A stretch of DNA of 12,818 bases from a virus: the UHGV virus genome UHGV-0342252, one strand, 5' to 3'. Positions 1-12,818 of this stretch are shown here, in pieces (positions within the stretch are counted from its first letter, which is position 1; every line of letters begins with the position of its first letter). Below the pieces are notes generated by a model, which had not been told where the DNA came from, did not search any database, and saw nothing but the letters and a program-made list of their open reading frames with translations. Position numbers and translations under genes: made by a program.

Positions 1-28
1 TTCTCTGCCGCGCGCTTCTTTGCGTAGA

Positions 29-241
29 TTAGCCATTTACCTTCCCTCGCAATTGAAGAATTGACTGAAGGTCTTTTTTAATAAATATGCGAGTGCGGAT
101 TGAGCAGTAGTTTTCCTTCATTCTGGCGTAGTAATAGTCCTTTCGTTGTTTAAGCTTGTTGGCATCCGCTGTCATCCAGTCTTTTACAGCAAACTTAATT
201 AACCAGCGGTGGCAGAGATACCATTTCAGGTAATCACTCAT
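29..241 (-). CDS. hypothetical nin-region protein (70 aa)
   Basis: ORF-track ORF; ATG at 241..239 overlaps the stop of the upstream gene by 8 nt (ATGAGTGA), consistent with translational coupling in a minus-strand operon. No motif recognised. Confidence 0.4.
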   Translation of the reverse strand: MSDYLKWYLCHRWLIKFAVKDWMTADANKLKQRKDYYYARMKENYCSIRTRIFIKKDLQSILQLRGKVNG

Positions 242-410
242 CGTCTTCTTCCTCGTACATTGAGCTATTCGGATCGCTCATCAGTTCTGCGCAGCAGTGC
301 TCACACACATGAACTTCCAGCACATGCAGCTTCTGACTGCAGTTAGCGCACGTTAAAGCCCGCTCGACGCTTTCTTTCTGGTATTGAAGGGATTGGGATG
401 GGCTAAGCAT
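234..410 (-). CDS. small C4 zinc-ribbon protein with acidic C-terminus (58 aa)
   Basis: CxxC-x11-CxxC pattern (TCANCS...VCEHCC) and EEEDDE tail. Start chosen at ATG 410..408 (GGTGA upstream, 8-nt overlap with upstream stop); the ORF-track ORF extends to 464, so the start is uncertain. Confidence 0.45.
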   Translation of the reverse strand: MLSPSQSLQYQKESVERALTCANCSQKLHVLEVHVCEHCCAELMSDPNSSMYEEEDDE

Positions 411-810
411 GGCTTTCACCATTAAAAAGTCGCTTGTAAGCATCAATGTCTCGTTTTGCTTCACCGAGCTTTCGTCTTAATTCCATGTTTTCTGATTCAA
501 GCTTTTCCATGTCTTGTTGGTATCGATCGCGGTGTTCTTTCCATGCTTTTTGATACGCCTTCATGTATGTCATGTTGGCCTTTCTCTTTGCCTGACGAAC
601 TGCGTGGTGGTTTTCTACAAACCACTCAGGGTCGTTAAATGCTGCTCTGGCGCATGTATACCAATAATTTGTTGCCTCCCTGTTTAGCCAATAAATACTG
701 ATAAATGGCAACTGGATAGACACCATTTTTCGTTGAGACTCTTTCTCGCCAAACATGTGTCCTTTTTTGATGCTAAGGCCAAATCCAGGTTGAATTAAAA
801 GCATTGTCAT
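403..810 (-). CDS. hypothetical protein (135 aa), charged/helical C-terminal half
   Basis: ORF-track ORF; ATG at 810..808 overlaps the upstream stop (ATGA). No family recognised. Confidence 0.5.
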
Positions 811-983
811 TTCCTCGCACGATGTCTAAGCCACCGGATATCCCACAGGTGAGCCGTGTAATTGAAGGTTTTTACGTCAGATTCTTTTGGGATTGGCTTG
901 CGTTTATTTCTGGAGCGTTTCGTTGGAAGGTATTTGCAGTTTTCACAGATTATGTCGGTGATACTTCGTCGCTGTCGTCTCAT
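807..983 (-). CDS. small basic nin-region protein (58 aa), possibly NinE-like
   Basis: Internal ATG at 983..981 overlaps the ninB stop (ATGA); product [20 protein letters not shown]... is Arg/Lys-rich. Position directly after ninB matches where ninE sits in lambdoid prophages; the family assignment is a guess. Confidence 0.4.
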
Positions 984-1441
984 TCGTACCTCCTGTCGGT
1001 AAATCTGACACCCTGACCAATAGCCCATGCTGTTGTGTACTCGATCAGACTTGCCATACGCTTCACGCTCATCTGCGCGCTGCTTTCGCGAATGTTGACG
1101 TATTCGCCTTCAAGGCCGGGCAAAACATCAGCTTCCTGCTTTGTTGCCACTGCATGACCGCTTATCAACAAAACCTTCCATTGTTCTGGTTTTAACCATT
1201 TGCCGCACCATTGAACCTGACTTGCGATATCCGCCAGCATCGCGTGAAATTTTGCGTTCTGGTCAAGGTTGCGCTTGTAGTCAGTAATGCGGATGGTAAC
1301 TGGCTTGTCTTTATCGAGTGGTGTTGCGAGGATGGCGTCGTGCAGCAGGTGAATGCTCATACAACTCATCAATCGGCAAACTGGACGATGAACGATACCG
1401 ATACCAACGCACCAACTCTTCACGAAAATTAGCCCTGACAA
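980..1441 (-). CDS. ninB: NinB-like recombination protein
   Basis: Central region ([44 protein letters not shown]) resembles lambda NinB as I recall it (KPIVVTIQERNRSLDQNRKLWACLGDVSRQVEWHGRWLDAESWK). Maximal ORF begins with TTG at 1441; real start may be an internal ATG (1369 or 1360). No convincing SD at any candidate. Confidence 0.6.
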
Positions 1442-1489
1442 GCTCAGCTATCGTACTCATTTCTTAAAGCCTCCAATTCCCTCTCCCCC

Positions 1490-1521
1490 AAATAAAAAGG
1501 CCTGCGATTACCAGCAGGCCT
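1490..1521 (-). terminator. intrinsic terminator after the primase-helicase gene (tR2-like position)
   Basis: On the minus strand: 8-bp perfect stem AGGCCTGC / GCAGGCCT (1521..1498) with 8-nt loop, followed by TTTTATTT (1497..1490), about 30 nt after the helicase stop. Confidence 0.6.
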
Positions 1522-1550
1522 GTTATTAGCTCAGTGATGTAGATGGTCAT

Positions 1551-3431
1551 TTAATACTCCGTCACGTTTTCCTGTCGCCACGCCTCGTCATATTCCGATT
1601 TCGGCATATTGGCGATGTAGCTATAAGGCGATCCTGATTCAAGTTGCAGGAACTGGTGCGATTGCTCGTCAAGGAACAAAGGGACGCCACCTTCCCAACC
1701 TTCGCCGTTACGTTGTTTTTCAAGCATCAAAACAGATGCCGGAGATGCCAGTAGCTGTTCGTCCTTCTCTGACATCTTTTCACCACTCTGAACTCTCTGT
1801 AACGCTCTCTCGCGAGCCTTGTTACGCCAGATGATGAAAAGGTTGTCTGTCAGGTCTGTTATCGCTCCAGAGCCTTTTACGTCCATTTTCCCGGTTGGTT
1901 TTTCTTCGCTGTCTCCTTTTCGCGAGTGAGTAACGAGAATGACGTGGGAGTTTGTTTTGTTTTTGAAGTCGCAAATCGAGTCAACAAACGCCTTCTGCCC
2001 GTTATAGTCATCGTCGCCTATGCCACATTTCATCAGGCTGTCGATGATGAATAACTGGATCCCGTATCGGCGGCGAGCGTAGTCGAATATTTCGATCAGC
2101 CTGTCGGCTTTCGCCGTTCCGGTCAGACCAAACACCCAAAGTCTTTCGTCATAAAATTTAAATGCAGAGTCAATTTCCAGCACTGGCGGCATCTTGCAGC
2201 ACGTCGCCTGACGGGTAAGGCGCTTAAGGAGAATACCAGGCTTCAGCTCAAGTGACGCGATGCACGTCTTCACACCCTGACGCATTGCCTCAAGTGCCAT
2301 ATGCCCGACAACCTCCGTTTTTCCGTGACCGTTCACACCATTGACCAGCGTCAACTCTGCCTCACGGAACTGGAATTTATCTGCCAGAGATTCCCACGGT
2401 GGATTAAACAGATACTGCTGCTTGCCGTAGAAAGCGTTGATAGTGTCCTGGTAAAACTCTCGCGCGCTGTAGAGTTCTTCAGGATCGAAGTAGGATGCCG
2501 TGCCGATGTACTGCCAGATTTCATCCTCGGTAACACCGTTCATCAGGCATTCGTTGATGTCTTTGTACGGCAGAGTAACAAGACGGCAACGATGTTCACC
2601 GAGTCGGCTTGCGATTTCCCTTGCGGCTTCACGACCAACATCATCAACGTCCATCGAGATGAATATTTCCTCAAACCTGTCGAGGTTGTGATACTCAAAC
2701 TCAATCCACTGTTGCTTAGCGCCTTTCCCGCCACCAAACGGCACGGATAACGCCGAGATGCCGTATTGCGCATAGCTCATACAATCAATTTCGCCTTCGC
2801 AAAGTACAACCGCCCTCACGCCAGCGTCCAGAGCCTGCCATCCGAACAGACAAGGTTCGCAATCACCTTCTGCCATAATGACTTTCTTCCCGTCCGGGCG
2901 CTCAGTGCTGATTCGCTTGACCTGCAACAACTCACCATCGCGTTTGTACGGAATCACCAGAGCATCCAGTTCTCGCTCTCCATTCCACACCTTGCCGCTG
3001 ACAACCTCGTAGCGCTTTACGACTTCTGGCGATATGCCACGCGATTGCAGGTACTCAAGATGGGATTCTGTTCTGGTAACGTAGCGGGCGATTTTCTTGC
3101 GATCAGGTCTGGAGAATTTCTTCTCACGTTTGGCATCGAAATGGTGATCGTCATCCTTGATACCGAGAAATGCTTTCGCTTCCTGCATAGCCTGATGCAG
3201 GTTAATTCCTCGACATGCCATCCACAAATCAAGCATGTCACCGCCGTCCCCCTCAGCGAAATCAGCCCATTTTTTCTTGCCGCTAAGGTTGACCTTAAGG
3301 CTGTTTCCCTTGTCACCGTTGACGTTACCGGCAACCCACTCATGCCCCTCTTTCTTGCCGTTTGGCAACAGGTGCGGAGCCACCCTGTCAACCTGCGCCC
3401 AAAGCAGGTCGCTAAGTTCACTTGGCGTCAT
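1551..3431 (-). CDS. primase-helicase fusion (Toprim primase + DnaB/T7 gp4-type SF4 helicase), 626 aa
   Basis: Toprim motifs (VVLCEGEIDCMS; ISMDVDDVGREAA), Walker A (NGVNGHGKTEVV), Walker B-like (QLFIIDSLMK). N-terminal region resembles a primase zinc-binding domain but has no cysteines. ATG overlaps the stop of a small upstream ORF (ATGA). Confidence 0.85.
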   Translation of the reverse strand: MTPSELSDLLWAQVDRVAPHLLPNGKKEGHEWVAGNVNGDKGNSLKVNLSGKKKWADFAEGDGGDMLDLWMACRGINLHQAMQEAKAFLGIKDDDHHFDAKREKKFSRPDRKKIARYVTRTESHLEYLQSRGISPEVVKRYEVVSGKVWNGERELDALVIPYKRDGELLQVKRISTERPDGKKVIMAEGDCEPCLFGWQALDAGVRAVVLCEGEIDCMSYAQYGISALSVPFGGGKGAKQQWIEFEYHNLDRFEEIFISMDVDDVGREAAREIASRLGEHRCRLVTLPYKDINECLMNGVTEDEIWQYIGTASYFDPEELYSAREFYQDTINAFYGKQQYLFNPPWESLADKFQFREAELTLVNGVNGHGKTEVVGHMALEAMRQGVKTCIASLELKPGILLKRLTRQATCCKMPPVLEIDSAFKFYDERLWVFGLTGTAKADRLIEIFDYARRRYGIQLFIIDSLMKCGIGDDDYNGQKAFVDSICDFKNKTNSHVILVTHSRKGDSEEKPTGKMDVKGSGAITDLTDNLFIIWRNKARERALQRVQSGEKMSEKDEQLLASPASVLMLEKQRNGEGWEGGVPLFLDEQSHQFLQLESGSPYSYIANMPKSEYDEAWRQENVTEY

Positions 3432-3535
3432 GATTCCCTCAGATTGAGATTTTTAAACCAGAAATCGACAAACGAAATACTTAACCAGCCGTGGTTATAA
3501 CCAGCGACCAGTAGCGATTTGATTTTTGATTTCAT
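3428..3535 (-). CDS. possible small hydrophobic peptide (35 aa) bridging O-like and helicase genes
   Basis: ATG at 3535..3533 begins 3 nt after the O-like stop; stop TGA overlaps the helicase ATG (ATGA). Product MKSKIKSLLVAGYNHGWLSISFVDFWFKNLNLRES. No independent SD; could be non-coding spacer. Confidence 0.3.
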   Translation of the reverse strand: MKSKIKSLLVAGYNHGWLSISFVDFWFKNLNLRES

Positions 3536-3538
3536 GGT

Positions 3539-4399
3539 TCACCTGTCGAAAAACACGTAGCCAGTTTTCGATACGGTGATTGCGGATGATGGTTTGGATT
3601 GTGGTTGAATGGTTTCTGGCTTTTCGTCGTTCCAGCGCTGACCGTTCAGGTAGCTCGATGGTAACAACCTGTCGAATCCGAACTGCTTACCATTCCTGCA
3701 TGCGATGTCTTCTGCCAGCATCGTGGCAAACTCGCTTGCCGTACCCCTGGTAGTTTTACGCCATTCCCTGAACTGTGTTCTGAATGCCGAAGCTGCGTTT
3801 TTCTTCCCGGCTTTCCGCATGCCTGCACACCAGAATATTTCCTCGAATGCCTTGTCGGTTTCTTCGTGACGGTCATGTGATTTTTCACACTCCGTCCGAA
3901 CACTTTCGGACATAGTGTTTTTATTATTTCTTTTTTCTTTTGTAATAGTTTCTTTTGTGTGTCCCTGTTTTGGTGACAGCGCTGTCACCGTTTTGGTGAC
4001 ACTTTTTGTCACCAATGCAGTGACATTATCACCAGAGTAGTGACACCCTTCTATTTGCCATTCCTCGATGTTCTTGTTAGGCCCGATTTGCTGGCCTTCG
4101 CGAAGGATAACCTTCATCGCGATAAGCTCATTCTTGGCCTTGTTTACCTTCTGTCTTGGCAGCCTGGTAATTTGAGCTAACTGACTATCAGAGATGCGAT
4201 CCATCTTTTTACCGTAGCCGTATGTTTTACGGCATATGGCGTGGGCAACCTTGCTCTGATTTTTCGTTAAATCTGCGCCGATAAGCTCTTCATACAGGGC
4301 ATTTGCAAGACGGGTATAACCATCTTCAACTTCTGCCACACGACGCTCCACAGGCCGTTGTGAAGGCCTTAAATGTGTTACGGTTGCAAGATTACTCAT
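3539..4399 (-). CDS. replication initiator, lambda O-like N-terminal domain with a distinct C-terminal domain (286 aa)
   Basis: N-terminus ([55 protein letters not shown]...GPNKNIEEW) closely parallels lambda O as I recall it; iteron repeats and an A+T-rich tract lie mid-gene; strong SD (AGGAG) before the ATG. The C-terminal half does not resemble lambda O. Confidence 0.85.
3915..4047. other. ori-like element inside the O-like gene: GTGACA-type iterons (3972..4047) next to an A+T-rich tract (3915..3960)
   Basis: About seven copies of GGTGACA/TGTCACC in alternating orientation, including perfect palindromes GGTGACAGC/GCTGTCACC, followed in gene direction by a T/A-rich stretch; same layout as lambda ori within O. 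Iterons encode the VT-rich linker ([17 protein letters not shown]). Confidence 0.7.
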
Positions 4400-4538
4400 G
4401 ACCTTTCTCCTTCTGCATCAGCTTCACTTTTTCCAACTCAGCCCGGAATCGACCAGGCTGCTTGAAGCTGGACAGGAAGCGATCACGTAGTATGTGTTTG
4501 TGAATTTTGTCCTGGTAAGGACTGAGTTGTTTTGTCAT
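4392..4538 (-). CDS. small basic ORF (48 aa) between cII and the O-like gene
   Basis: Strong SD (AGGAG) 6 nt before ATG 4538..4536; stop overlaps the O-like ATG by 8 nt (ATGAGTAA). Product [48 protein letters not shown]. The SD+ATG appear to be those used by O in lambda. Confidence 0.4.
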
Positions 4539-4548
4539 AATGACTCCT

Positions 4549-4626
4549 GTGGATTGATCCAGTAATGACCTCAGAATTCCATCTGGATTTGTTCAGAACG
4601 CTCGGTTGCCGCCGGGCGTTTTTTAT
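4549..4626 (+). ncRNA. oop: OOP-like antisense RNA overlapping the 3' end of cII
   Basis: Plus-strand sequence ...GAACGCTCGGTTGCCGCCGGGCGTTTTTTATT matches the lambda oop terminator region as I recall it (GC-rich hairpin plus T-run ending about 4624); a CATAAT -10 candidate lies at 4536..4541. The -35 is not convincing, so the 5' end is approximate. Confidence 0.45.
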
Positions 4627-4864
4627 TGGTGAGAATCGAAGCAACTTGTCGTGCCAATCGAGCCATATCGTCGTCAACGACGCCCCATTCAAGAACAGCA
4701 AGCAGCATTGAGAACTTTGGAATCCAGTCCCTCTTCCACCTGCTGATCTGCGACTTATCAACTCCCACAGCTTCCGCTGTCTTCTCAGTTCCAAGCATTG
4801 CGATTTTGTTAAGCAACGCACTCTCGATTCGTAGAGCCTCGTTGCGTTTGTTTGCACGAACCAT
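4571..4864 (-). CDS. cII: transcriptional activator CII (97 aa)
   Basis: Translation from ATG 4864..4862 ([97 protein letters not shown]) matches lambda CII from memory nearly residue for residue. The ORF-track ORF 4571..4924 extends upstream without support. Confidence 0.95.
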
Positions 4865-4880
4865 ATGTAAGTATTTCCTT
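4842..4880 (+). promoter_or_regulatory. pRE-like promoter with CII box TTGC-N6-TTGC
   Basis: TTGCGTTTGTTTGC at 4842..4855 on the plus strand (the CII recognition repeat), followed by AAGTAT -10 candidate about 4870..4875; reads through cro in antisense toward cI, as in lambda. Confidence 0.7.
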
Positions 4881-4943
4881 AGATAACAATTGATTGAATG
4901 TATGCAAATAAATGCATACACCATAGGTGTGGTTTAATTTGAT

Positions 4944-4976
4944 GCCCTTTTTCAGGGCTGGGATGTGTAAGAGCGG
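4944..4976 (-). promoter_or_regulatory. nutR (boxA + boxB), with the rho-dependent tR1 region expected between it and cII
   Basis: Minus strand reads CGCTCTTACACATCCCAGCCCTGAAAAAGGGC: boxA CGCTCTTA (4975..4968) and boxB hairpin GCCCTGAAAAAGGGC (4958..4944), just downstream of the cro-like stop. Confidence 0.85.
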
Positions 4977-4983
4977 GAATGTC

Positions 4984-5199
4984 TTAAGCGGCTTTGTGTT
5001 CCGGCGGGAACAAGCCATCTAGCGTTGTCTTGCTCCCCAATTTATTCAGCGCCTTTACCAGGCGACGGCACGACTCTAAATCTGGAGTCCGGATACCTGA
5101 CTCGTAGTTAGCTAAGCGGGACTGGTTCCAGCCACACGCGCCTGCTAACGCAGATTGAGTGATGCCAAGCTTTTTCCGTTCGTTGGCAATGTTGTTCAT
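4984..5199 (-). CDS. cro: Cro-like HTH repressor (71 aa), not lambda Cro type
   Basis: First gene downstream of pR, divergent from cI; SD AAGGA before the ATG. HTH (LAGACGWNQSRLANYESGIRTP) is very similar to the cI HTH (LAELCGWASQSRIGNYESGTRSV), as expected for proteins sharing operators. Confidence 0.75.
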   Translation of the reverse strand: MNNIANERKKLGITQSALAGACGWNQSRLANYESGIRTPDLESCRRLVKALNKLGSKTTLDGLFPPEHKAA

Positions 5200-5303
5200 A
5201 GGTTTCCTTAAGAGCTAGTTCACTCAGTCTTTATTAAACACATATTGTGATTGATAGTCAACACAAATCGTGTAAAGCCTTAAACCACGGAATGTGATAT
5301 AAA
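5200..5303. promoter_or_regulatory. oR / pR / pRM control region with three operator-like sites
   Basis: Three sites with a CAC-N5-GTG core (ACACATATTGTGAT 5238..5251; ACACAAATCGTGTA 5261..5274; CCACGGAATGTGAT 5284..5297) spaced about 23 bp apart. pR on the minus strand: -35 TTGACT (5261..5256), 17-bp spacer, -10 TTTAAT (5238..5233). A weak pRM -10 candidate (GATATA near 5296..5301) would give a near-leaderless cI transcript. Confidence 0.7.
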
Positions 5304-5945
5304 ATGCGCATGAACAGAACAGAAACTATCGCCGCGCGTATCAAGCGATTACGGGAAGATAAAGGGCTTTCACAGAAGGCTCTGGCGGAGCTTTGCGGCT
5401 GGGCTTCACAATCTCGGATCGGCAACTATGAATCAGGAACCAGAAGCGTTAGTGTTGATGACGCAGAGGTAATAGCTAAAGCTTTGGGCGTCGCTCCGGC
5501 AGAACTGCTTTTTGGCGACAACTATCAGGGACAATACAAGCCAGGGGAAAAGTTTCCGTTGATTAGCTGGGTTAGCGCAGGTGCATGGAGTGAGGCCGTA
5601 GAGCCGTACAACCCTCAGGCAGTGGATGAGTGGTATGAATCAGATTGTCACGTTGTCGGTGACGCCTTCTGGCTCAGGGTTCAGGGCGACTCAATGACAG
5701 CTCCTACCGGCCTTAGCGTTCCTGAGGGTATGCTGGTTCTGTTCGACACTGGAAAGGAAGCCGTTAATGGAAGCCTGGTAGTTGCGAAGCTGACAGATGC
5801 TAATGAAGCCACGTTCAAGAAGCTAATCATTGATGGCGGTAACAAATACCTGAAAGGGCTTAACCCTGCCTATCCGTTGATCCCAATCGACGGCAACTGC
5901 AAGATAATCGGCGTAGCAGTGCAGATGATGATGAAATTCTCCTGA
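5304..5945 (+). CDS. cI: CI-type prophage repressor with LexA-like S24 autopeptidase domain (213 aa)
   Basis: N-terminal HTH; C-terminal domain with Ala-Gly cleavage site (SWVSAGAW), Ser (QGDSMTAP) and Lys (VVAKL) resembles the P22 C2 / lambda CI family. Alternative start at ATG 5310. Confidence 0.9.
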   Translation: MRMNRTETIAARIKRLREDKGLSQKALAELCGWASQSRIGNYESGTRSVSVDDAEVIAKALGVAPAELLFGDNYQGQYKPGEKFPLISWVSAGAWSEAVEPYNPQAVDEWYESDCHVVGDAFWLRVQGDSMTAPTGLSVPEGMLVLFDTGKEAVNGSLVVAKLTDANEATFKKLIIDGGNKYLKGLNPAYPLIPIDGNCKIIGVAVQMMMKFS

Positions 5946-5968
5946 TATCCCAGCCACTTAAAAACATC

Positions 5969-5993
5969 AAACCCGCTTCGGCGGGTTTTTTGT
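5969..5993 (+). terminator. intrinsic terminator directly after cI
   Basis: ACCCGC-TTCG-GCGGGT hairpin (5971..5986) followed by a T-run. Confidence 0.7.
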
Positions 5994-6032
5994 TGCCCAA
6001 AGAAAATTAAATTACCTTAAAAATCAATGAAA

Positions 6033-6095
6033 ACACGTGTTGTGATAAAAACAATCACATTTCGTGTTGACAGCACGAACACAATTTGTGATTAT
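6033..6095 (+). promoter_or_regulatory. oL / pL: three operator-like sites and the leftward early promoter
   Basis: -35 TTGACA (6067..6072), 17-bp spacer, -10 GATTAT (6090..6095). Three sites with the same CAC-N5-GTG core as oR (6033..6046, 6055..6068, 6079..6092) overlap the promoter elements. Confidence 0.75.
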
Positions 6096-6134
6096 CTAGC
6101 CATCAGCAGGACGCACTGACCACCATGAAGGTGA

Positions 6135-6165
6135 CGCTCTTAAAAATTAAGCCCTGAAGAAGGGC
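6135..6165 (+). promoter_or_regulatory. nutL (boxA + boxB)
   Basis: CGCTCTTAA (6135..6143) and GCCCTGAAGAAGGGC (6151..6165), matching lambda nutL as recalled. Confidence 0.85.
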
Positions 6166-6433
6166 AGCATTCAAAGCAGAAGGCTTTGGGGTGTGGTGAA
6201 GCCAGCTAGTCACTGGCAAGTGCTTACCTACTGTTGAGCGGTGAAGCGCTCCCAACGCTAGCAATAGCGTGGACGAGATGGGGAGCCGCGGGCGATAAGG
6301 CCGCCATAACGCGCACGTTGTCGCATGGAAAAATCGCTGGGGTGCCGGTTATACCCCTCCGAATGAGACTCAACAAGCTGGAGCTAGACTACCAGCCACC
6401 ACACCACCAAAGCTAACTGACAGGAGAATGACC

Positions 6434-6565
6434 ATGAATAACGAAGCGCTTAAAGAAATGATTGCGAAACTCCTTGAGGACGCACGCCGAATTCAAGAAG
6501 TGGAGCCAAACGCAGGGACACAATCACGTATTGATGAAGCGATGAAGTTGCTCAAAGGAGAATAA
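6434..6565 (+). CDS. small ORF (43 aa) immediately upstream of N
   Basis: SD AGGAG (6422..6426) 7 nt before the ATG; stop TAA lies between the SD and ATG of N. Product MNNEALKEMIAKLLEDARRIQEVEPNAGTQSRIDEAMKLLKGE, predicted helical. Below the ORF-track size cutoff. Confidence 0.45.
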   Translation: MNNEALKEMIAKLLEDARRIQEVEPNAGTQSRIDEAMKLLKGE

Positions 6566-6566
6566 A

Positions 6567-6893
6567 ATGGATGCACAAGCACGCCGCCGCGAACGTCGCG
6601 CAGAGAAACAGGCTCAATGGAAAGCAGCAAATCCCCTGTTGGTTGGGGTAAGCGCAAAACCAGTTAACCGCCCTATTCTCTCGCTGAATCACAAACCGAA
6701 ATCACGAGTAGAAAGCGCACTGAATCCGATAGACCTTACGGTGCTGGCTGAATACCACGAACAGATTGAAAGCAACCTGCAACGTATTGAGCGCAAGAAT
6801 CAGCGCACATGGTACAGCAAGCCACGCAGTGAAATGGGTGTGACTTGTGTTGGTCGCCAGAAAATGAAATTAGGCAGCAAGCCACTTATTTGA
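6567..6893 (+). CDS. N: antitermination protein N (108 aa)
   Basis: MDAQARRRERRAEKQAQWKAANPLLVGVSAKPVNRPILSLN... matches lambda N from memory over almost its whole length, including the Arg-rich boxB-binding N-terminus; cognate nutL and nutR boxB sites are present. Confidence 0.95.
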   Translation: MDAQARRRERRAEKQAQWKAANPLLVGVSAKPVNRPILSLNHKPKSRVESALNPIDLTVLAEYHEQIESNLQRIERKNQRTWYSKPRSEMGVTCVGRQKMKLGSKPLI

Positions 6894-6901
6894 GGTGAGA
6901 T

Positions 6902-7372
6902 ATGACAAAATCATGGAGCGTACCTTTTCCTGAATCAGAAACTGAACATGATGGAATGCCTGTTTTCTGGAGATTCCAGGCGACAGTTGAAGAAGATGGA
7001 ATCAAAATATTCGCACTTCAATATATAGCTTTTCATCAGACAGAGCATTATGCATGGTTGGTTCCTGCGCATTGGATTGTTAATTTTAAACCAGCACCAA
7101 ATCAGTGGTTACAGGAATGGAAACAAAAGAGAAATAGATATGCAATTAAGAAAGTAGCAAAAAATGCAGAAAGATCTTTTGCATTCCCAACGAAGAAACT
7201 TGCCATTGAAAGTTTATTGCGCCGGAAGAAATACCATTTAATGAGAATCAAACAAGATTTGGCTGTTGTATCAACTCTTGTTGATGGGATGAAGAATATT
7301 GATACATCAACACCAGATATTGAATATAACTTTGGACACAACCAAGAAACAGAAAATTGGGTATTTTATTAG
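6902..7372 (+). CDS. hypothetical protein (156 aa) encoded by an A+T-rich insert after N
   Basis: SD GAGGTGAG directly after the N stop, ATG 8 nt downstream. Coding sequence is visibly A+T-richer than N and cIII (judged by eye, not computed). No motif recognised. Confidence 0.65.
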   Translation: MTKSWSVPFPESETEHDGMPVFWRFQATVEEDGIKIFALQYIAFHQTEHYAWLVPAHWIVNFKPAPNQWLQEWKQKRNRYAIKKVAKNAERSFAFPTKKLAIESLLRRKKYHLMRIKQDLAVVSTLVDGMKNIDTSTPDIEYNFGHNQETENWVFY

Positions 7373-7476
7373 TACAAATAAGCACTGTGTATTCATTCCA
7401 ACGAGTGAATACACGGAGCAATGTCGCTCGTAACTAAACAGGAGCCGACTTGTTCTGATTATTGGAAATCTTCTTT

Positions 7477-7503
7477 GCCCTCCAGTGTGAGGGCAATTTT
7501 TTT
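7477..7503 (+). terminator. intrinsic terminator between the 156-aa gene and the coiled-coil gene (tL1-like position)
   Basis: GCCCTC-CAGTGT-GAGGGC hairpin (7477..7494) followed by AATTTTTTT (7495..7503). Confidence 0.65.
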
Positions 7504-7515
7504 GACGGAGGATAT

Positions 7516-8484
7516 ATGAGTGAAGTAACAGATTTAGTTGTTATTGAAAAAGCAAATGCAATGACTGTATTTCAGTCTGCCGACCAGATTGAAGAAATCC
7601 TTCAAAAGGTTGAACGTGAAGTTATGTCCTTTGTGCCTGATATCACAACGGCAAAGGGCAGAAAGGAGATCGCTTCTCTGGCGTATAAAGTTGCGCAGAC
7701 GAAAACATATCTCGATGGTCTTGGAAAAGACCTTGTTGCTGAACTGAAGGAAATTCCAAAGCTAATTGATGCCAACCGCAAGACAGTGCGTGATCGCCTT
7801 GATGAGCTGAAATCCAAGGCACGCCAGCCTCTTACTGATTATGAGGAAGAACAGGCGCGTATTAAAGCCGAAGAAGAAGCTAAGGCAGCAGCTGAAGCTC
7901 TCGCAAAGCAAATTGAGTCTGACCATGAAATAGCGATTTTGATGGATCGCGAATTTGACCGCCAAAGAGAAGAGGCAAGACTCAAAGCGGAGCAGGAAAA
8001 GCGAGAGCATGAAGAACGCTTAAAAAGAGAAGCTGAAGAGAAAGCCAGAGCAGAAGCCGAAGCAAAGGCAAAAGCCGAAATTGAAGCAGCAGCAAGGCGA
8101 GAGGCAGAAGCTAAGGCCGCAGCGGAACGTGCAGAGCGTGAACGCATTGAAGCCGAGCAACGAGCACAGCGCGAAGCAAAAGAGGCAGCAGAACGAGCTG
8201 AAAGAGAAAAGCAGGCAGCAATTGAAGCAGAACGCAGAAAAGCACAGGAGGAGGCTGAACGAATCCGTCGCGAGGCTGAAGCAAAAGAGCAAGCCAGAAT
8301 AGCAGAAGAAAAAAGAATCAAGGACGAAGAAGAGCGCAGAGCAAAGGATAAAGCTCACCGGAAAGAAGTAAATAACAAAATACTTGCTGACCTTATCAAG
8401 GTTGGCGCATCAGAAGATGTTGCTAAAAATATCATAACAGCCATCGTAAAAGGCGAAGTATTCGCAACAAAAATAACCTACTAA
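7516..8484 (+). CDS. coiled-coil protein with long Glu/Ala/Lys/Arg-rich helical domain (322 aa), function unknown
   Basis: Start set at ATG 7516 (SD GGAGGA, downstream of the terminator) rather than the ORF-track start 7462, which lies upstream of the terminator hairpin. About 110-aa N-terminal domain, about 175 aa of EAEAKAKAE / ERAERE-type repeats, short C-terminal domain. Confidence 0.7.
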   Translation: MSEVTDLVVIEKANAMTVFQSADQIEEILQKVEREVMSFVPDITTAKGRKEIASLAYKVAQTKTYLDGLGKDLVAELKEIPKLIDANRKTVRDRLDELKSKARQPLTDYEEEQARIKAEEEAKAAAEALAKQIESDHEIAILMDREFDRQREEARLKAEQEKREHEERLKREAEEKARAEAEAKAKAEIEAAARREAEAKAAAERAERERIEAEQRAQREAKEAAERAEREKQAAIEAERRKAQEEAERIRREAEAKEQARIAEEKRIKDEEERRAKDKAHRKEVNNKILADLIKVGASEDVAKNIITAIVKGEVFATKITY

Positions 8485-8507
8485 TAAACCAACATAAGGA
8501 ACCACCC

Positions 8508-8654
8508 ATGATTTACGCAATCGCGGGAGGCGCTCGCATGGGTGCCTTCCAACTAAATGAATCTTTACTTGAACGAATCACCCGTAAATTACGTGACGGA
8601 TGGAAACGACTCATCGACGTACTTAATCAGCCAGGAGTTCCAAAAAATGGATAA
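8508..8654 (+). CDS. cIII: CIII, FtsH inhibitor (48 aa)
   Basis: ...ESLLERITRKLRDGWKRLIDVLNQPGVPKNG matches the lambda CIII core as recalled; SD AAGGA before the ATG; stop overlaps the kil start. Confidence 0.85.
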   Translation: MIYAIAGGARMGAFQLNESLLERITRKLRDGWKRLIDVLNQPGVPKNG

Positions 8655-8760
8655 AACACTTATGGCTATCCAGACTAAATTCGCTATCGCCACTTTTATT
8701 GGCGATGAAAAGATGTTTCGTGAGGCTGTCGAAGCCTACAGGAAATGGAGGTCAAAATGA
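8647..8760 (+). CDS. kil: Kil-like host cell-division inhibitor (37 aa)
   Basis: MDKTLMAIQTKFAIATFIGDEKMFREAV... resembles the lambda Kil N-terminus as I recall it; overlaps the cIII stop as in lambda. The ORF-track ORF 8557..8760 shares this frame, but the upstream part lacks a start signal. Confidence 0.65.
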   Translation: MDKTLMAIQTKFAIATFIGDEKMFREAVEAYRKWRSK

Positions 8761-8963
8761 TTACGGTAGAACTGGCGAAAACCCCAGAGTTAAGTCGATT
8801 AAAAAGAGAGTATCACATTGCTGAGGCTCGTTACTGGCGTAAAGCGGGAGATAAATCAAAGAAACAACTTTGTTTATGGCAAGCACAAAGAGAGCGCATG
8901 AATGAGCGCGAATTTCTTTCCTCCCCATCCGAATTACCATTCGGAGGTGAATTATGGATTTGA
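8757..8963 (+). CDS. hypothetical small protein (68 aa) at the position of lambda gam
   Basis: ATG 8757 overlaps the kil stop (ATGA), SD GGAGG upstream. No resemblance to lambda Gam noted. Confidence 0.5.
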   Translation: MITVELAKTPELSRLKREYHIAEARYWRKAGDKSKKQLCLWQAQRERMNEREFLSSPSELPFGGELWI

Positions 8964-9661
8964 ACAAATTCGATGAGCCATTCAGCCCTGAAGATATCGA
9001 ATGGCGAATACAGCAAAGCGGTAAAACACGCGATGGCAAGGTGTGGGCTATGGTGCTGGCTTATGTCACGAACCGGGCAATCATGAAGCGCCTGGACGAT
9101 GTTTGCGGCAAAGCAGGATGGCGCAATGAATACCGCGATATTCCCAACAACGGCGGAGTTGAATGCGGCATATCAATCAAGATTGATTCCGAATGGGTAA
9201 CCAAATGGGATGCTGCTGAAAACACGCAGGTAGAAGCCGTCAAAGGTGGTCGTTCCGGTGCAATGAAGCGCGCTGCCGTTCAGTGGGGAATCGGTCGGTA
9301 TCTGTATAACCTTGAGGAAGGTTTCGCACAAACATCTCTCGATAAAAAGCAGGGATGGCACAGGGCAAAACTCAAGGATGGAACAGGATTTTACTGGCTC
9401 CCTCCATCGCTGCCGGGATGGGCAATCCCAGCATCAGATAACAAACCATCACCAGAAAATACCAACCAGAAATCTCCATCGGTTGACTGCGAACAAATCC
9501 TGAAAGACTTCAGCGATTATGCATCAACAGAAACTGACAAGAAAAAACTCATCGAGCGTTATCAGCGTGACTGGCAATTAATGGCTGGCAACGAGGAGGC
9601 GCAGGCTAAATGCGTTCAGGTAATGAACATCAGAGTTAACGAACTAAAACAGGCGGCATAA
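8954..9661 (+). CDS. single-strand annealing protein, Rad52/Rad22-type core (235 aa)
   Basis: Strong SD GGAGGTGA; motif GAMKRAAVQWGIGRYLYN resembles the Rad52-family annealing signature; sits where bet/erf lie in lambdoid phages. Pro/Ser/Asn-rich linker precedes a separate C-terminal domain. Confidence 0.7.
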   Translation: MDLNKFDEPFSPEDIEWRIQQSGKTRDGKVWAMVLAYVTNRAIMKRLDDVCGKAGWRNEYRDIPNNGGVECGISIKIDSEWVTKWDAAENTQVEAVKGGRSGAMKRAAVQWGIGRYLYNLEEGFAQTSLDKKQGWHRAKLKDGTGFYWLPPSLPGWAIPASDNKPSPENTNQKSPSVDCEQILKDFSDYASTETDKKKLIERYQRDWQLMAGNEEAQAKCVQVMNIRVNELKQAA

Positions 9662-10168
9662 ATGGCAAGCAGAGGCGTAAATAAGGTGATTATCCTTGGT
9701 CGGGTAGGACAAGACCCGGAAGTTCGATACTCACCATCAGGAACAGCGTTCGCTAACCTGACAATAGCCACGTCAGAACAATGGCGAGATAAAAATACTG
9801 GCGAGCAAAAGGAATTGACTGAATGGCATCGTGTTGCTGTATCCGGGAAACTGGCTGAGGTCGTGGGGCAGTATGTGAAAAAAGGTGATCAGATTTATTT
9901 CGAGGGAATGCTGAGAACCAGAAAGTGGAAAGACCAGTCAGGACAAGACCGTTACACAACCGAGGTTCATGTCGGAATTAATGGCGTGATGCAAATGCTT
10001 GGCGGCATTGGCGACAGCAAACAACAAGCAGCCAGCAGGCAATCACAGAAGCCACAGCAGCAATCATCACCAGCACAACACAACGAACCTCCGATGGATT
10101 TTGACGACGATATACCCTTTGCACCAGTAACTCTCCCCTTCCCTCGTCACGCTATTCACGCAATTTAA
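9662..10168 (+). CDS. ssb: single-stranded DNA-binding protein SSB (168 aa) with extended C-terminus
   Basis: OB-fold region parallels E. coli SSB ([16 protein letters not shown]...[15 protein letters not shown]...[17 protein letters not shown]), Gln/Pro-rich linker, acidic tail [10 protein letters not shown]; ORF continues 15 codons beyond that tail. Confidence 0.9.
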
Positions 10169-10244
10169 TCAGGAGAAAATCATGCCAGCGCCTCTGTATG
10201 GTGCGGATGACCCGCGCCGCTGTTCCGGCAATTCCGTATCGTAG

Positions 10245-10478
10245 GTGCTGGAAAGTATCAAGAATAATCTCGGCGCGTTTCTTGCTCTGCCACCAGAAAC
10301 AAAAGCAGAACGGAAGTACCGACGCGATATACAACTCGCAGAAAAACAGGAAAAAGACCGAATAAACGAAACATCAATCCGACCATTACGCAAAGCCACA
10401 TATACCCACTTCCCTGAATATATCGACCCGCGCCTGCGTAATTACCGCTCACGCTATGGCGCTATCAGTAATGACTGA
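10245..10478 (+). CDS. hypothetical protein (77 aa from GTG), possibly the 3' part of a gene interrupted by an amber codon
   Basis: A strong SD (AGGAG, 10171..10175) and ATG at 10182 open a frame that hits TAG at 10242..10244; the same frame continues from GTG 10245 with no SD of its own. Confidence 0.4.
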
Positions 10479-10653
10479 GGAATTTACAATGAGAGGAATT
10501 GCATACAATCCCGGCATTCTTCCGGCAGAAATGATTATTCGCCAACGCGTAAAGCCAATGCCATCGAGAGAGGAATTGCTTAAGAGAAAGAGTTTCGGTT
10601 CTGTTAATGACAACAAATATCTGAATGCTATGTGGCGGAGTGGGAAGAAATGA
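10471..10653 (+). CDS. hypothetical small protein (60 aa; 54 aa if from ATG 10489)
   Basis: ATG 10471 overlaps the upstream stop (ATGACTGA); ATG 10489 has SD GAGG. Same frame either way. Confidence 0.45.
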
Positions 10654-11249
10654 AACAAATGACACTAATTGAGATGGATGGCTTTCTGAAAGGTAAATGC
10701 ATCCCACGAGATTTAAAGGTTAACGAAACAAACGCTGAATATCTGGTGCGTAAATTTGCTGAACTTGAATCAAAGCTGGAAACGGCGTTGCGTGAGTTTC
10801 GTTCTGCTGGAATCACGATTGATAACCTTGAGGCCAAGTGCACTGCGCTGGCAGCGGAGAATGCGGGGATGAAGTCGGTCATTGAATACTGCATTAATCC
10901 CGACAATCAGCCTGAATACCATGACCAGGGCATGGGATGTGGAGTTGAAGACCACGGCTACCAGCGCGACGGCTATTCGGCTTGTTACTACGGATGGGAG
11001 TCGGCAATGGAACGCGTCTACTCAGAGGTTATTCCAGACGCCATTCCAGAAACCCCAGCCACCGATGCTTTTCTGGCTGAAGTGCGTGCGCAGTGCCTCA
11101 ACGCTTTCATCCAGCATCACAGTGCAGAACTGGATGCGCATATTAAAAACAGTGGTGAGCAGTTCGACGAAAAATCAGTACGCATCAGAGACATCATCGT
11201 CTCAGCCCGCTTGTTCAGGGAGCAAATTCGCAAAGGAGCCGCGCTATGA
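10650..11249 (+). CDS. hypothetical protein (199 aa) with Cys/His/Tyr-rich central segment
   Basis: ATG overlaps the upstream stop (ATGA); the ORF-track ORF starts 18 nt earlier in the same frame. No family recognised. Confidence 0.6.
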
Positions 11250-11518
11250 GCAAATCGTACATCGTCATTCAGCAATATCTGTGTTGCAACGAAAACGGTC
11301 ATTGGATTGAGTATGTGTCTGACTGCGTTGAATTTGATAAGCGCGACAAGGCCATCAAGCATGGATTCAAACAGCAAGGTAGCGATGATTTCAATATCGG
11401 CGTTATCGAAAATGAACGCCTAGTGTCATTCGACTGGATGAATAAGTCGATTGATGAAAGCGCAGAAAAACTTGCTGAAATTGCAGAAGCCATCGGTTAC
11501 GAAGGAGCAGCCCAATGA
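11246..11518 (+). CDS. hypothetical protein (90 aa)
   Basis: SD AGGAG and ATGA overlap with the upstream stop. Confidence 0.6.
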   Translation: MSKSYIVIQQYLCCNENGHWIEYVSDCVEFDKRDKAIKHGFKQQGSDDFNIGVIENERLVSFDWMNKSIDESAEKLAEIAEAIGYEGAAQ

Positions 11519-11928
11519 GCAACATCAACAAACAGGCACTGCGTGAAGCGGCTGAGAAGGCCACTCCTGGCCGCGTCGGTGACCGTATCGACGGAAGCGG
11601 TAGCATCAAATACGAATGCCATGGTTATGATGGGTCTCTGGTCTTACGTACAGACCATAAAAACATGGAGTACGGATTTATTGGTGATAACAGTAACGCC
11701 GATGAGCTGTTCTTCAGGTTGTGTGTGCCAGATGTAATTCTGGCACTGCTGGATGAACTGGAAGCCGCAGAGAAGCGGATTGCTGAGCTGGAGCGTAAAG
11801 AACAGCACAGTGACCGACAGTCAGTAATTGATGCGTTGGCTAGTTCGGGTGAGGAATGGAGTGATATCGAAGAATACATGCAGAAGTGGGACGCGGAACG
11901 CGCCGCCGCAGCCGGTAAAGGAGAGTGA
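11515..11928 (+). CDS. hypothetical protein (137 aa), possibly Ead/Ea22-like
   Basis: SD GAAGGAG and ATGA overlap. N-terminus MSNINKQALREAAEKATPG... is reminiscent of prophage Ead/Ea22-like proteins; assignment is from memory and tentative. Confidence 0.55.
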   Translation: MSNINKQALREAAEKATPGRVGDRIDGSGSIKYECHGYDGSLVLRTDHKNMEYGFIGDNSNADELFFRLCVPDVILALLDELEAAEKRIAELERKEQHSDRQSVIDALASSGEEWSDIEEYMQKWDAERAAAAGKGE

Positions 11929-11929
11929 A

Positions 11930-12211
11930 ATGGCTAAATTTACAGACGTACACGACCTGTTAACTGCTTATCAAAAACAGGCCCGAAAAGTACCGCCTAA
12001 GGGAGTTTACGCATCAAAGCAGCGACAACAGGAAGTCCAGGCGGCGCACACGAGAAAGGTAATGCGCCAGCGTAAGCGCTCTGTTGGAAAGTCTAACAAA
12101 TTAGGATTTCGTCGCCGGGCAGAAACTACGGCGGCGCTGATTTGCGAAATGAATTTTTGGGCGCTGGTGTGTCGTTCAAACCGCAAGAATTCCATCCAGG
12201 GTGAGGGATAA
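11930..12211 (+). CDS. hypothetical basic protein (93 aa)
   Basis: ATG 11930 preceded by SD AAGGAGAG; the ORF-track ORF 11828..12211 extends upstream in frame without support. Confidence 0.5.
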   Translation: MAKFTDVHDLLTAYQKQARKVPPKGVYASKQRQQEVQAAHTRKVMRQRKRSVGKSNKLGFRRRAETTAALICEMNFWALVCRSNRKNSIQGEG

Positions 12212-12213
12212 CC

Positions 12214-12818
12214 ATGAGCACTATTACCAAAGAATTAACCAAAGAGCAGTTACAGCAAATTATCGAAACTGACCACGTTCAATGCGGTGAGGCTTCTTCG
12301 CTGGCGCGTATCGCGCTGGCATCGCTCGAAGCGGAGCCTGTGGGTGAGGTTTCCGAGCAGCGTGATGGGCTGGTTATGGACGGCATGGTAGATCTCGGTG
12401 GAGCATCAACTCACCGAATTATTAAGGGAGCTAGCAAGATGAAACGGTTGCCGCTTGGCACGAAGTTTTACACCGCCCCGCTAGCGCCGGTATCTGTGCC
12501 TGATGCGATGGAAATGGATGATGACTTTGACAGCGCGTTTGAACACGGAAAAGCTGTCGGCTGGAACGCCTATCGCGCCGCCATGCTTCAGGCCGAACCC
12601 GTAAGTAATCGTGATGAGTTGCCGTTGGACTATCTGCAAGGTCACAAAGACGGCCTTGAATGGGCGGCACAATTGGCAGAAGCCAATCATCCGCAAACAG
12701 GTGACTGGTTGTACGACGACCCAATCGATCTTGCCAGGGCGATTCGCAAAGGTCCGGATATGCCTACTGTTCAGGGTGGCAGCTCTCCGGTAACTCCGGA
12801 TGGTTGGATAAGCTGTAG
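12214..12818 (+). CDS. hypothetical protein, 3'-truncated by the window end (at least 201 codons)
   Basis: ATG 12214 with SD GAGGGA, 2 nt after the upstream stop; frame stays open to the window edge by manual translation (MSTITKELTKEQLQQIIETDH...). Missing from the ORF track because it has no stop. Confidence 0.5.
   Translation, partial: MSTITKELTKEQLQQIIETDHVQCGEASSLARIALASLEAEPVGEVSEQRDGLVMDGMVDLGGASTHRIIKGASKMKRLPLGTKFYTAPLAPVSVPDAMEMDDDFDSAFEHGKAVGWNAYRAAMLQAEPVSNRDELPLDYLQGHKDGLEWAAQLAEANHPQTGDWLYDDPIDLARAIRKGPDMPTVQGGSSPVTPDGWISC

Follow-up and report, generated by a model that had tools for sequence, protein, structure and literature searches.

A probable recent nonsense allele of the anti-RecBCD gene abc2 in a mosaic lambdoid phage genome

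We analyzed a 12,818-nucleotide stretch of UHGV virus genome UHGV-0342252, called the window throughout, in which a gene for anti-RecBCD protein 2 is interrupted by an in-frame stop at codon 21. This is very probably a very recent nonsense (pseudogene) allele of abc2 and a null or severe hypomorph. A sequence-only reading of the same DNA had offered four explanations for the interrupted frame: a pseudogene, a sequencing error, a leader peptide coupled to a separate gene, and amber read-through. The pseudogene has been borne out, as one base, a T in place of G in a codon that is GAG elsewhere, separates the gene from the nearest intact alleles.

Layout and identity of the interrupted gene

The whole abc2 frame (PF11043) occupies 10182..10478 on the plus strand and comprises 98 codons plus a stop. 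The Shine-Dalgarno (SD) sequence AGGAG lies at 10171..10175 (+), 6 bases 5' of ATG 10182, and the upstream sequence including this SD is also present in intact orthologues. SD strength was calculated as the duplex energy between the 20 bases upstream of a start and the 16S 3' end. At -7.4 kcal/mol, ATG 10182 is in the top 3% of all window positions, in agreement with the excellent SD noted previously. The 20 sense codons from the native start, MPAPLYGADDPRRCSGNSVS (10182..10241, +), encode the N-terminal RecC-contacting segment of Abc2 and match the N-terminus of intact abc2 alleles with no differences. Codon 21, GAG (Glu21) in the wild type, is the amber codon TAG (10242..10244, +) by a change of G to T at 10242. 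The rest of abc2 (10245..10478, +), 77 codons and a TGA, begins directly 3' of the TAG with GTG 10245-10247 as codon 22, the conserved Val22 that is invariant among orthologues, and the frame is open to the TGA at 10476-10478. The SD energy at GTG 10245 is -1.7 kcal/mol, no better than 60% of positions and at background level. The earlier description of 20 codons, a TAG, and 77 more codons from a GTG with no SD of its own is thus confirmed.

Profile and protein matches identify both halves of the interrupted frame as one known gene, abc2 (anti-RecBCD protein 2, PF11043). With codon 21 read as Glu, the joined product belongs to the family by profile score, at 141.6 bits (E = 9e-42; residues 1-98 on profile positions 1-97) against a curated cut-off of 25 bits. 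The 77-codon piece alone aligns with profile positions 23-97 (87.9 bits, E = 5e-25). The repaired product matches P22 Abc2 in PDB 8b1t/8b1u (E = 6e-38), and homologues annotated as abc2 or anti-RecBCD are found in HK75, mEpX2, epsilon34, Sf6, and E. coli prophages. A megablast search with the 1-kb stretch around abc2 matched many lambdoid and P22-like phages, with the matched genes annotated as single-stranded DNA-binding protein, abc2 anti-RecBCD, and DUF2737; more than 1,000 complete E. coli genomes also match, with the annotation "phage anti-RecBCD protein". The gene has the place expected of the family as well, in an early-left recombination module 3' of erf/SSAP and ssb and 5' of DUF2737. 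Since the TAG at codon 21 breaks the uninterrupted ORF of about 97-98 codons that is typical of the family, we regard the window allele as a disrupted (pseudogene) member of the Abc2 family and not as a functional one. The 77-aa GTG-started product had no record in an exact-protein look-up.

The window allele resembles P22 and HK75 abc2 in family, in its 98-codon length, and in its place after erf and ssb and before DUF2737. Its N-terminal 20 residues are identical to those of P22 Abc2, and A3, R13, C14, S15, G16, and the Pro68 region are conserved. Unlike P22 abc2, it has TAG in place of GAG at codon 21 and encodes no full-length protein by standard decoding. It also differs from P22/HK75 in residues 24-65, which are of another allelic type (26 protein letters not shown), and its overall DNA identity to P22/HK75-type alleles is about 82%. 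A disrupted allele of a well-characterized family is already known in kind and is no new kind of element.

Several ORFs of 55-76 codons overlap abc2, one in another frame of the plus strand (10198-10365) and three on the minus strand (10169-10399, 10258-10452, and 10152-10334). We took these to be chance ORFs, as conservation follows the abc2 frame. They could be miscalled as genes in TAG-bearing contigs, where abc2 itself goes uncalled. The ENA annotation of L106, the second TAG-bearing record described below, has no gene call at the abc2 position.

The mutated base also sits within an SD-like GGAGGTG (codons TCG GAG GTG), which reads GTAGGTG at window 10241-10247. The motif occurs in nearly all orthologues and is abolished in the window by the G-to-T change. 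No start codon lies at SD distance 3' of it, and it is probably a by-product of the conserved Ser/Ala-Glu-Val codons.

Origin of the amber codon

We compared 125 abc2-bearing loci drawn from phage, E. coli, IMG/VR, NCBI, ENA, and Logan sources. Codon 21, the position at which the sequence-only reading had advised a comparison of orthologues, is GAG in 124 of the 125, in support of a nonsense mutation. An uninterrupted ORF of 97-98 codons is present in 123 of the 125 loci, the exceptions being L106, which has the same TAG, and L133, which has a later frameshift. Over the 361 bp of window 10140-10500, the sole difference from the prophage of E. coli 0H26 is T for G at 10242, and the 297-bp abc2 of five other loci (L098, L102, L105, L107, and L110) likewise differs from that of the window solely at 10242. 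At the IMG/VR locus L006, the predicted protein is identical to the repaired one. Apart from this one position, window abc2 shows zero divergence from its intact sisters. Because the stop is one base away from the sister alleles and the codon is GAG elsewhere, we interpret it as a derived, single-step, very recent nonsense mutation from GAG (Glu21) to TAG.

The TAG-bearing allele is rare, since an exact 29-mer carrying the TAG had no match in the genome, viral, and metagenome contig collections, among which the source of the window is not represented. A degenerate pattern that combined TAG at codon 21 with every known allele type gave 0 matches in the genome, viral, and metagenome collections. 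As a positive control, the same pattern with GAG gave at least 120 matches in the viral collection alone.

The same TAG is found in L106, a gut-metagenome scaffold (ENA ERZ28587942 scaffold_62) that is a separate deposit, from a sample possibly not independent of that of the window. L106 was reached through a look-up of a 199-aa neighboring protein; the ssb, primase, and cI proteins were too widespread and mosaic in such look-ups to single out the TAG lineage. The window and L106 differ by 1 SNP in 6169 bp, T at window 12482 and C at L106:5833. The SNP makes CTA (Leu) into CCA (Pro) in a DUF551 gene whose start is at 12214 and whose end lies beyond the window. The TAG is thus carried by two records that differ in sequence and are not one record seen twice. 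The remainder of the L106 prophage looks intact. Its integrase, called at 298 aa, was considered as a second lesion and dismissed, because the complete 392-aa ORF is unbroken and matches that of L113 without differences; the short call is the gene caller's choice of start.

These comparisons bear on whether the TAG is a sequencing or assembly error, the true sequence being GAG and the gene intact. Only one base is substituted in a gene that shows no other sign of decay, and the exact TAG 29-mer is absent from three large collections, both of which would fit an error. The same wrong base could also be common to the consensus of related assemblies. However, the consensus at normal coverage rarely keeps substitution errors, and L106, although deposited separately, has the same T. 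Because L106 shares the T yet differs elsewhere, an inherited allele is favored over random read error; a TAG common to two non-identical records argues for inheritance over a random consensus error as well. We consider the error proposed by the sequence-only reading quite improbable.

Expected product and competing explanations

P22 Abc2, the one member of the family for which this is known, binds the RecC subunit of host RecBCD and modifies the enzyme; it also binds PpiB (PMC9836394). In the cryoEM structure of P22 Abc2 with RecBCD, residues 3-52 of Abc2 lie on RecC (PMC9836394). Seven of the 21 listed hydrogen bonds and salt bridges with RecC are contributed by A3, R13 (two), C14, S15, and G16 (two), and the N-terminal contacts consist of backbone hydrogen bonds to RecC 324-328 and salt bridges of R13 and A3 (PMC9836394). 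In the window the RecC-contacting N-terminal residues are encoded 5' of the stop and are cut off from the remainder of Abc2. Among 40 distinct orthologous proteins, residues 1-21 hardly vary.

In this lineage the invariant GAG of Glu21 has very recently become the amber codon TAG through one G-to-T transversion at 10242. Ribosomes starting from the strong native SD and ATG would yield a 20-residue peptide that is released by RF1, and the remaining 77 codons would be translated only in traces, when a ribosome occasionally restarts at the GTG (Val22) or a near-cognate tRNA occasionally reads the stop. Restart should be inefficient because GTG 10245 has no SD. A restart product without residues 1-21 would be missing a third of the listed RecC contacts and, because residues 3-16 give 7 of the 21, would be crippled at best. 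Given that loss of contacts, the allele is expected to be null or a severe hypomorph, that is, a fresh pseudogene.

The nonsense mutation could be real and function still be kept if restart at GTG 10245 gave an active Abc2 lacking residues 1-21. The TAG and GTG are contiguous (TAGGTG), placing an in-frame start close to the stop as in translational restart, and this GTG is the only canonical in-frame start 3' of the TAG in the abc2 frame. Adjacent stop and start codons are an arrangement that lets bacterial ribosomes restart without an SD, as in lacI and T4 rIIB. E. coli offers classical cases of restart that follow an early nonsense codon and need no strong SD (lacI, T4 rIIB, and MS2), and Adhin and van Duin reportedly described a scanning model for ribosome restart. 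Of the 21 listed RecC contacts, 14 lie in the downstream part of abc2, which would also keep the PpiB-binding region around Pro68. By analogy with these systems, some truncated Abc2 may be made through the stop-adjacent GTG. The window is like the lacI restart proteins and T4 rIIB in having an early nonsense codon and then an in-frame GTG, but differs from them in that its GTG has no SD and the lost N-terminus belongs to a binding interface. At a background-level SD energy the expected yield is low, the missing residues are the nearly invariant ones bearing the RecC 324-328 backbone hydrogen bonds and the R13 and A3 salt bridges, and none of the orthologues begins at Val22. An active restart product is therefore unlikely. 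Nothing directly applicable was found in the literature on natural amber suppressors and on bacterial reinitiation. Full-length Abc2 would be made, and the allele would be conditional, if the amber codon were read through by a host suppressor tRNA or at a high natural rate. Amber is the class of stop most often suppressed in enterobacteria, and a purine, G, follows the codon. Nevertheless, basal UAG read-through is low in wild-type E. coli, and the element uses TAG as the ordinary stop of two further genes, at 403-810 (-) and 6902-7372 (+). The TAG at codon 21 is also absent from every other orthologue except the sister record L106 and from the three collections, so that a maintained read-through signal is not indicated. 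The suppressor tRNA that the sequence-only reading had suggested looking for was not found in the window, as the 12,818 nt contain no tRNA gene, and nothing suggests a host amber suppressor. TAG reassignment was ruled out because of the two other window genes that end in TAG. We consider read-through very improbable.

A two-cistron design, in which a regulatory or coupled 20-aa leader peptide precedes a separate GTG-initiated 77-aa gene, is suggested only by the layout, in which a strong SD and a short ORF are followed by a stop with a GTG next to it, and we give it almost no credence. One continuous ORF is present in 123 of the 124 TAG-free orthologous loci, L133 being broken by its later frameshift; both halves lie in one Pfam domain and in one polypeptide chain in PDB 8b1t; and the arrangement arose by one base change relative to intact sister alleles. 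The sequence-only reading had held that its case would be refuted if the orthologues uniformly kept two separate ORFs that each had start signals. We found the opposite, a single ORF whose N-terminal 20 residues are conserved and contact RecC. Since there is no tRNA gene, TAG is used as a terminator within the element, the stop is not conserved among orthologues, and no orthologue has two ORFs, programmed read-through, reassignment, and a leader-peptide design are all removed from consideration. A recent nonsense allele of abc2 is the explanation that we prefer.

Genomic context, other losses of abc2, and significance

Judged by its gene content, the window spans the region for immunity, replication, and early-left functions in a mosaic lambdoid/P22-like temperate phage. 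Going by identical proteins that are annotated in relatives, the genes run in the order primase, O, cII, cro, cI, N, cIII, kil, erf, ssb, abc2, DUF2737, ead/Ea22, and DUF551. The erf gene is at 8954-9661, and an intact ssb (9662..10168, +; PF00436, E = 1.6e-36) is immediately upstream of abc2. Identical copies of the 168-aa ssb protein of the window are widespread and are followed by abc2 in relatives. Immediately downstream of abc2 is an intact DUF2737 gene (10489..10653, +; PF10930, E = 1.8e-28), and its own SD, GAGGA at 10477-10481 (-6.1 kcal/mol), overlaps the abc2 stop. The order erf, ssb, abc2, DUF2737 is the same in HK75, 0H26, and many contigs. Lambdoid pL operons are N-antiterminated, and N antitermination suppresses Rho-dependent polarity. 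Because DUF2737 has its own SD and the operon is N-antiterminated, strong polarity is not expected, and DUF2737 should still be expressed.

The junctions between erf, ssb, abc2, and DUF2737 are mosaic insertion points in several relatives (L088-L090, L099, L104, L108, and L111; window 10168-10182). Depending on the relative, erf and ssb are separated by an HNH endonuclease, ssb and abc2 by an Rv2179c-like 3'-5' exonuclease or by about 500 bp of DNA with no annotation, or abc2 and DUF2737 by a DUF5405 gene. Among complete E. coli genomes and deposited phages, at most about 63% of the window is found at a single place (96-98% identity). The window is a new mosaic of common lambdoid modules, in which a toprim primase/O replication set is joined to the cI immunity region seen here and to an erf-ssb-abc2 left arm. 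No Chi site (GCTGGTGG) occurs on either strand of window 1-12818, where 0.18 would be expected by chance, and nothing in this segment points to a strategy of Chi richness by which Abc2 could be dispensed with.

Loss of abc2 is sporadic elsewhere, with a frameshift in L133 and complete absence in L093. The disruption in L133 (L133:12304-12540; GCA_045618545.1) is independent of the one in the window, a frameshift near codon 75 that results in a 78-aa call. This prophage also has a shortened rep-O call and could be another decaying prophage or a low-quality assembly. L093 (L093:3508-4795; CP057432.1) is a prophage with an identical ssb and without abc2 and DUF2737. No genes are called there for about 1.3 kb after ssb, and the locus suggests a deletion or replacement of this part of the module.

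Phages have escaped P2 OLD and Gabija by losing RecBCD antagonists (lambda gam, Mu-type Gam, and Exo-Erf) (bioRxiv 10.64898/2026.07.10.737580; PMC12407980). In the OLD study the trigger from HK75 was Gp33 and not Abc2 (bioRxiv 10.64898/2026.07.10.737580). Like those escape mutants, the window has a nonsense lesion in a gene of an anti-RecBCD/recombination module; unlike them, it represents one lineage only. Instead of being neutral decay, the amber codon might have been selected if losing or strongly reducing Abc2 keeps the (pro)phage from setting off a RecBCD-guarding defense (OLD-, Gabija-, or retron-type) of host or co-resident origin, or if the GTG supplies a conditional low dose of Abc2. 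We rate selection as distinctly unlikely because the TAG lesion is confined to a single tip lineage, which gives no evidence of selection.

The proper annotation of the gene is as an abc2 pseudogene with an amber codon at position 21. Neither a leader peptide nor a recoding site should be annotated here, nor should the 77 codons be listed as a gene of their own that starts at the GTG. Beyond correct annotation the significance of the allele is small, unless its loss of function is proved to have been selected, in which case it would add to current work on RecBCD-guarding defenses a natural example of a gut E. coli prophage that escapes by inactivating an anti-defense gene. We predict that the induced prophage would be without Abc2-mediated modification of RecBCD and may grow or recombine less well in recBCD+ hosts.
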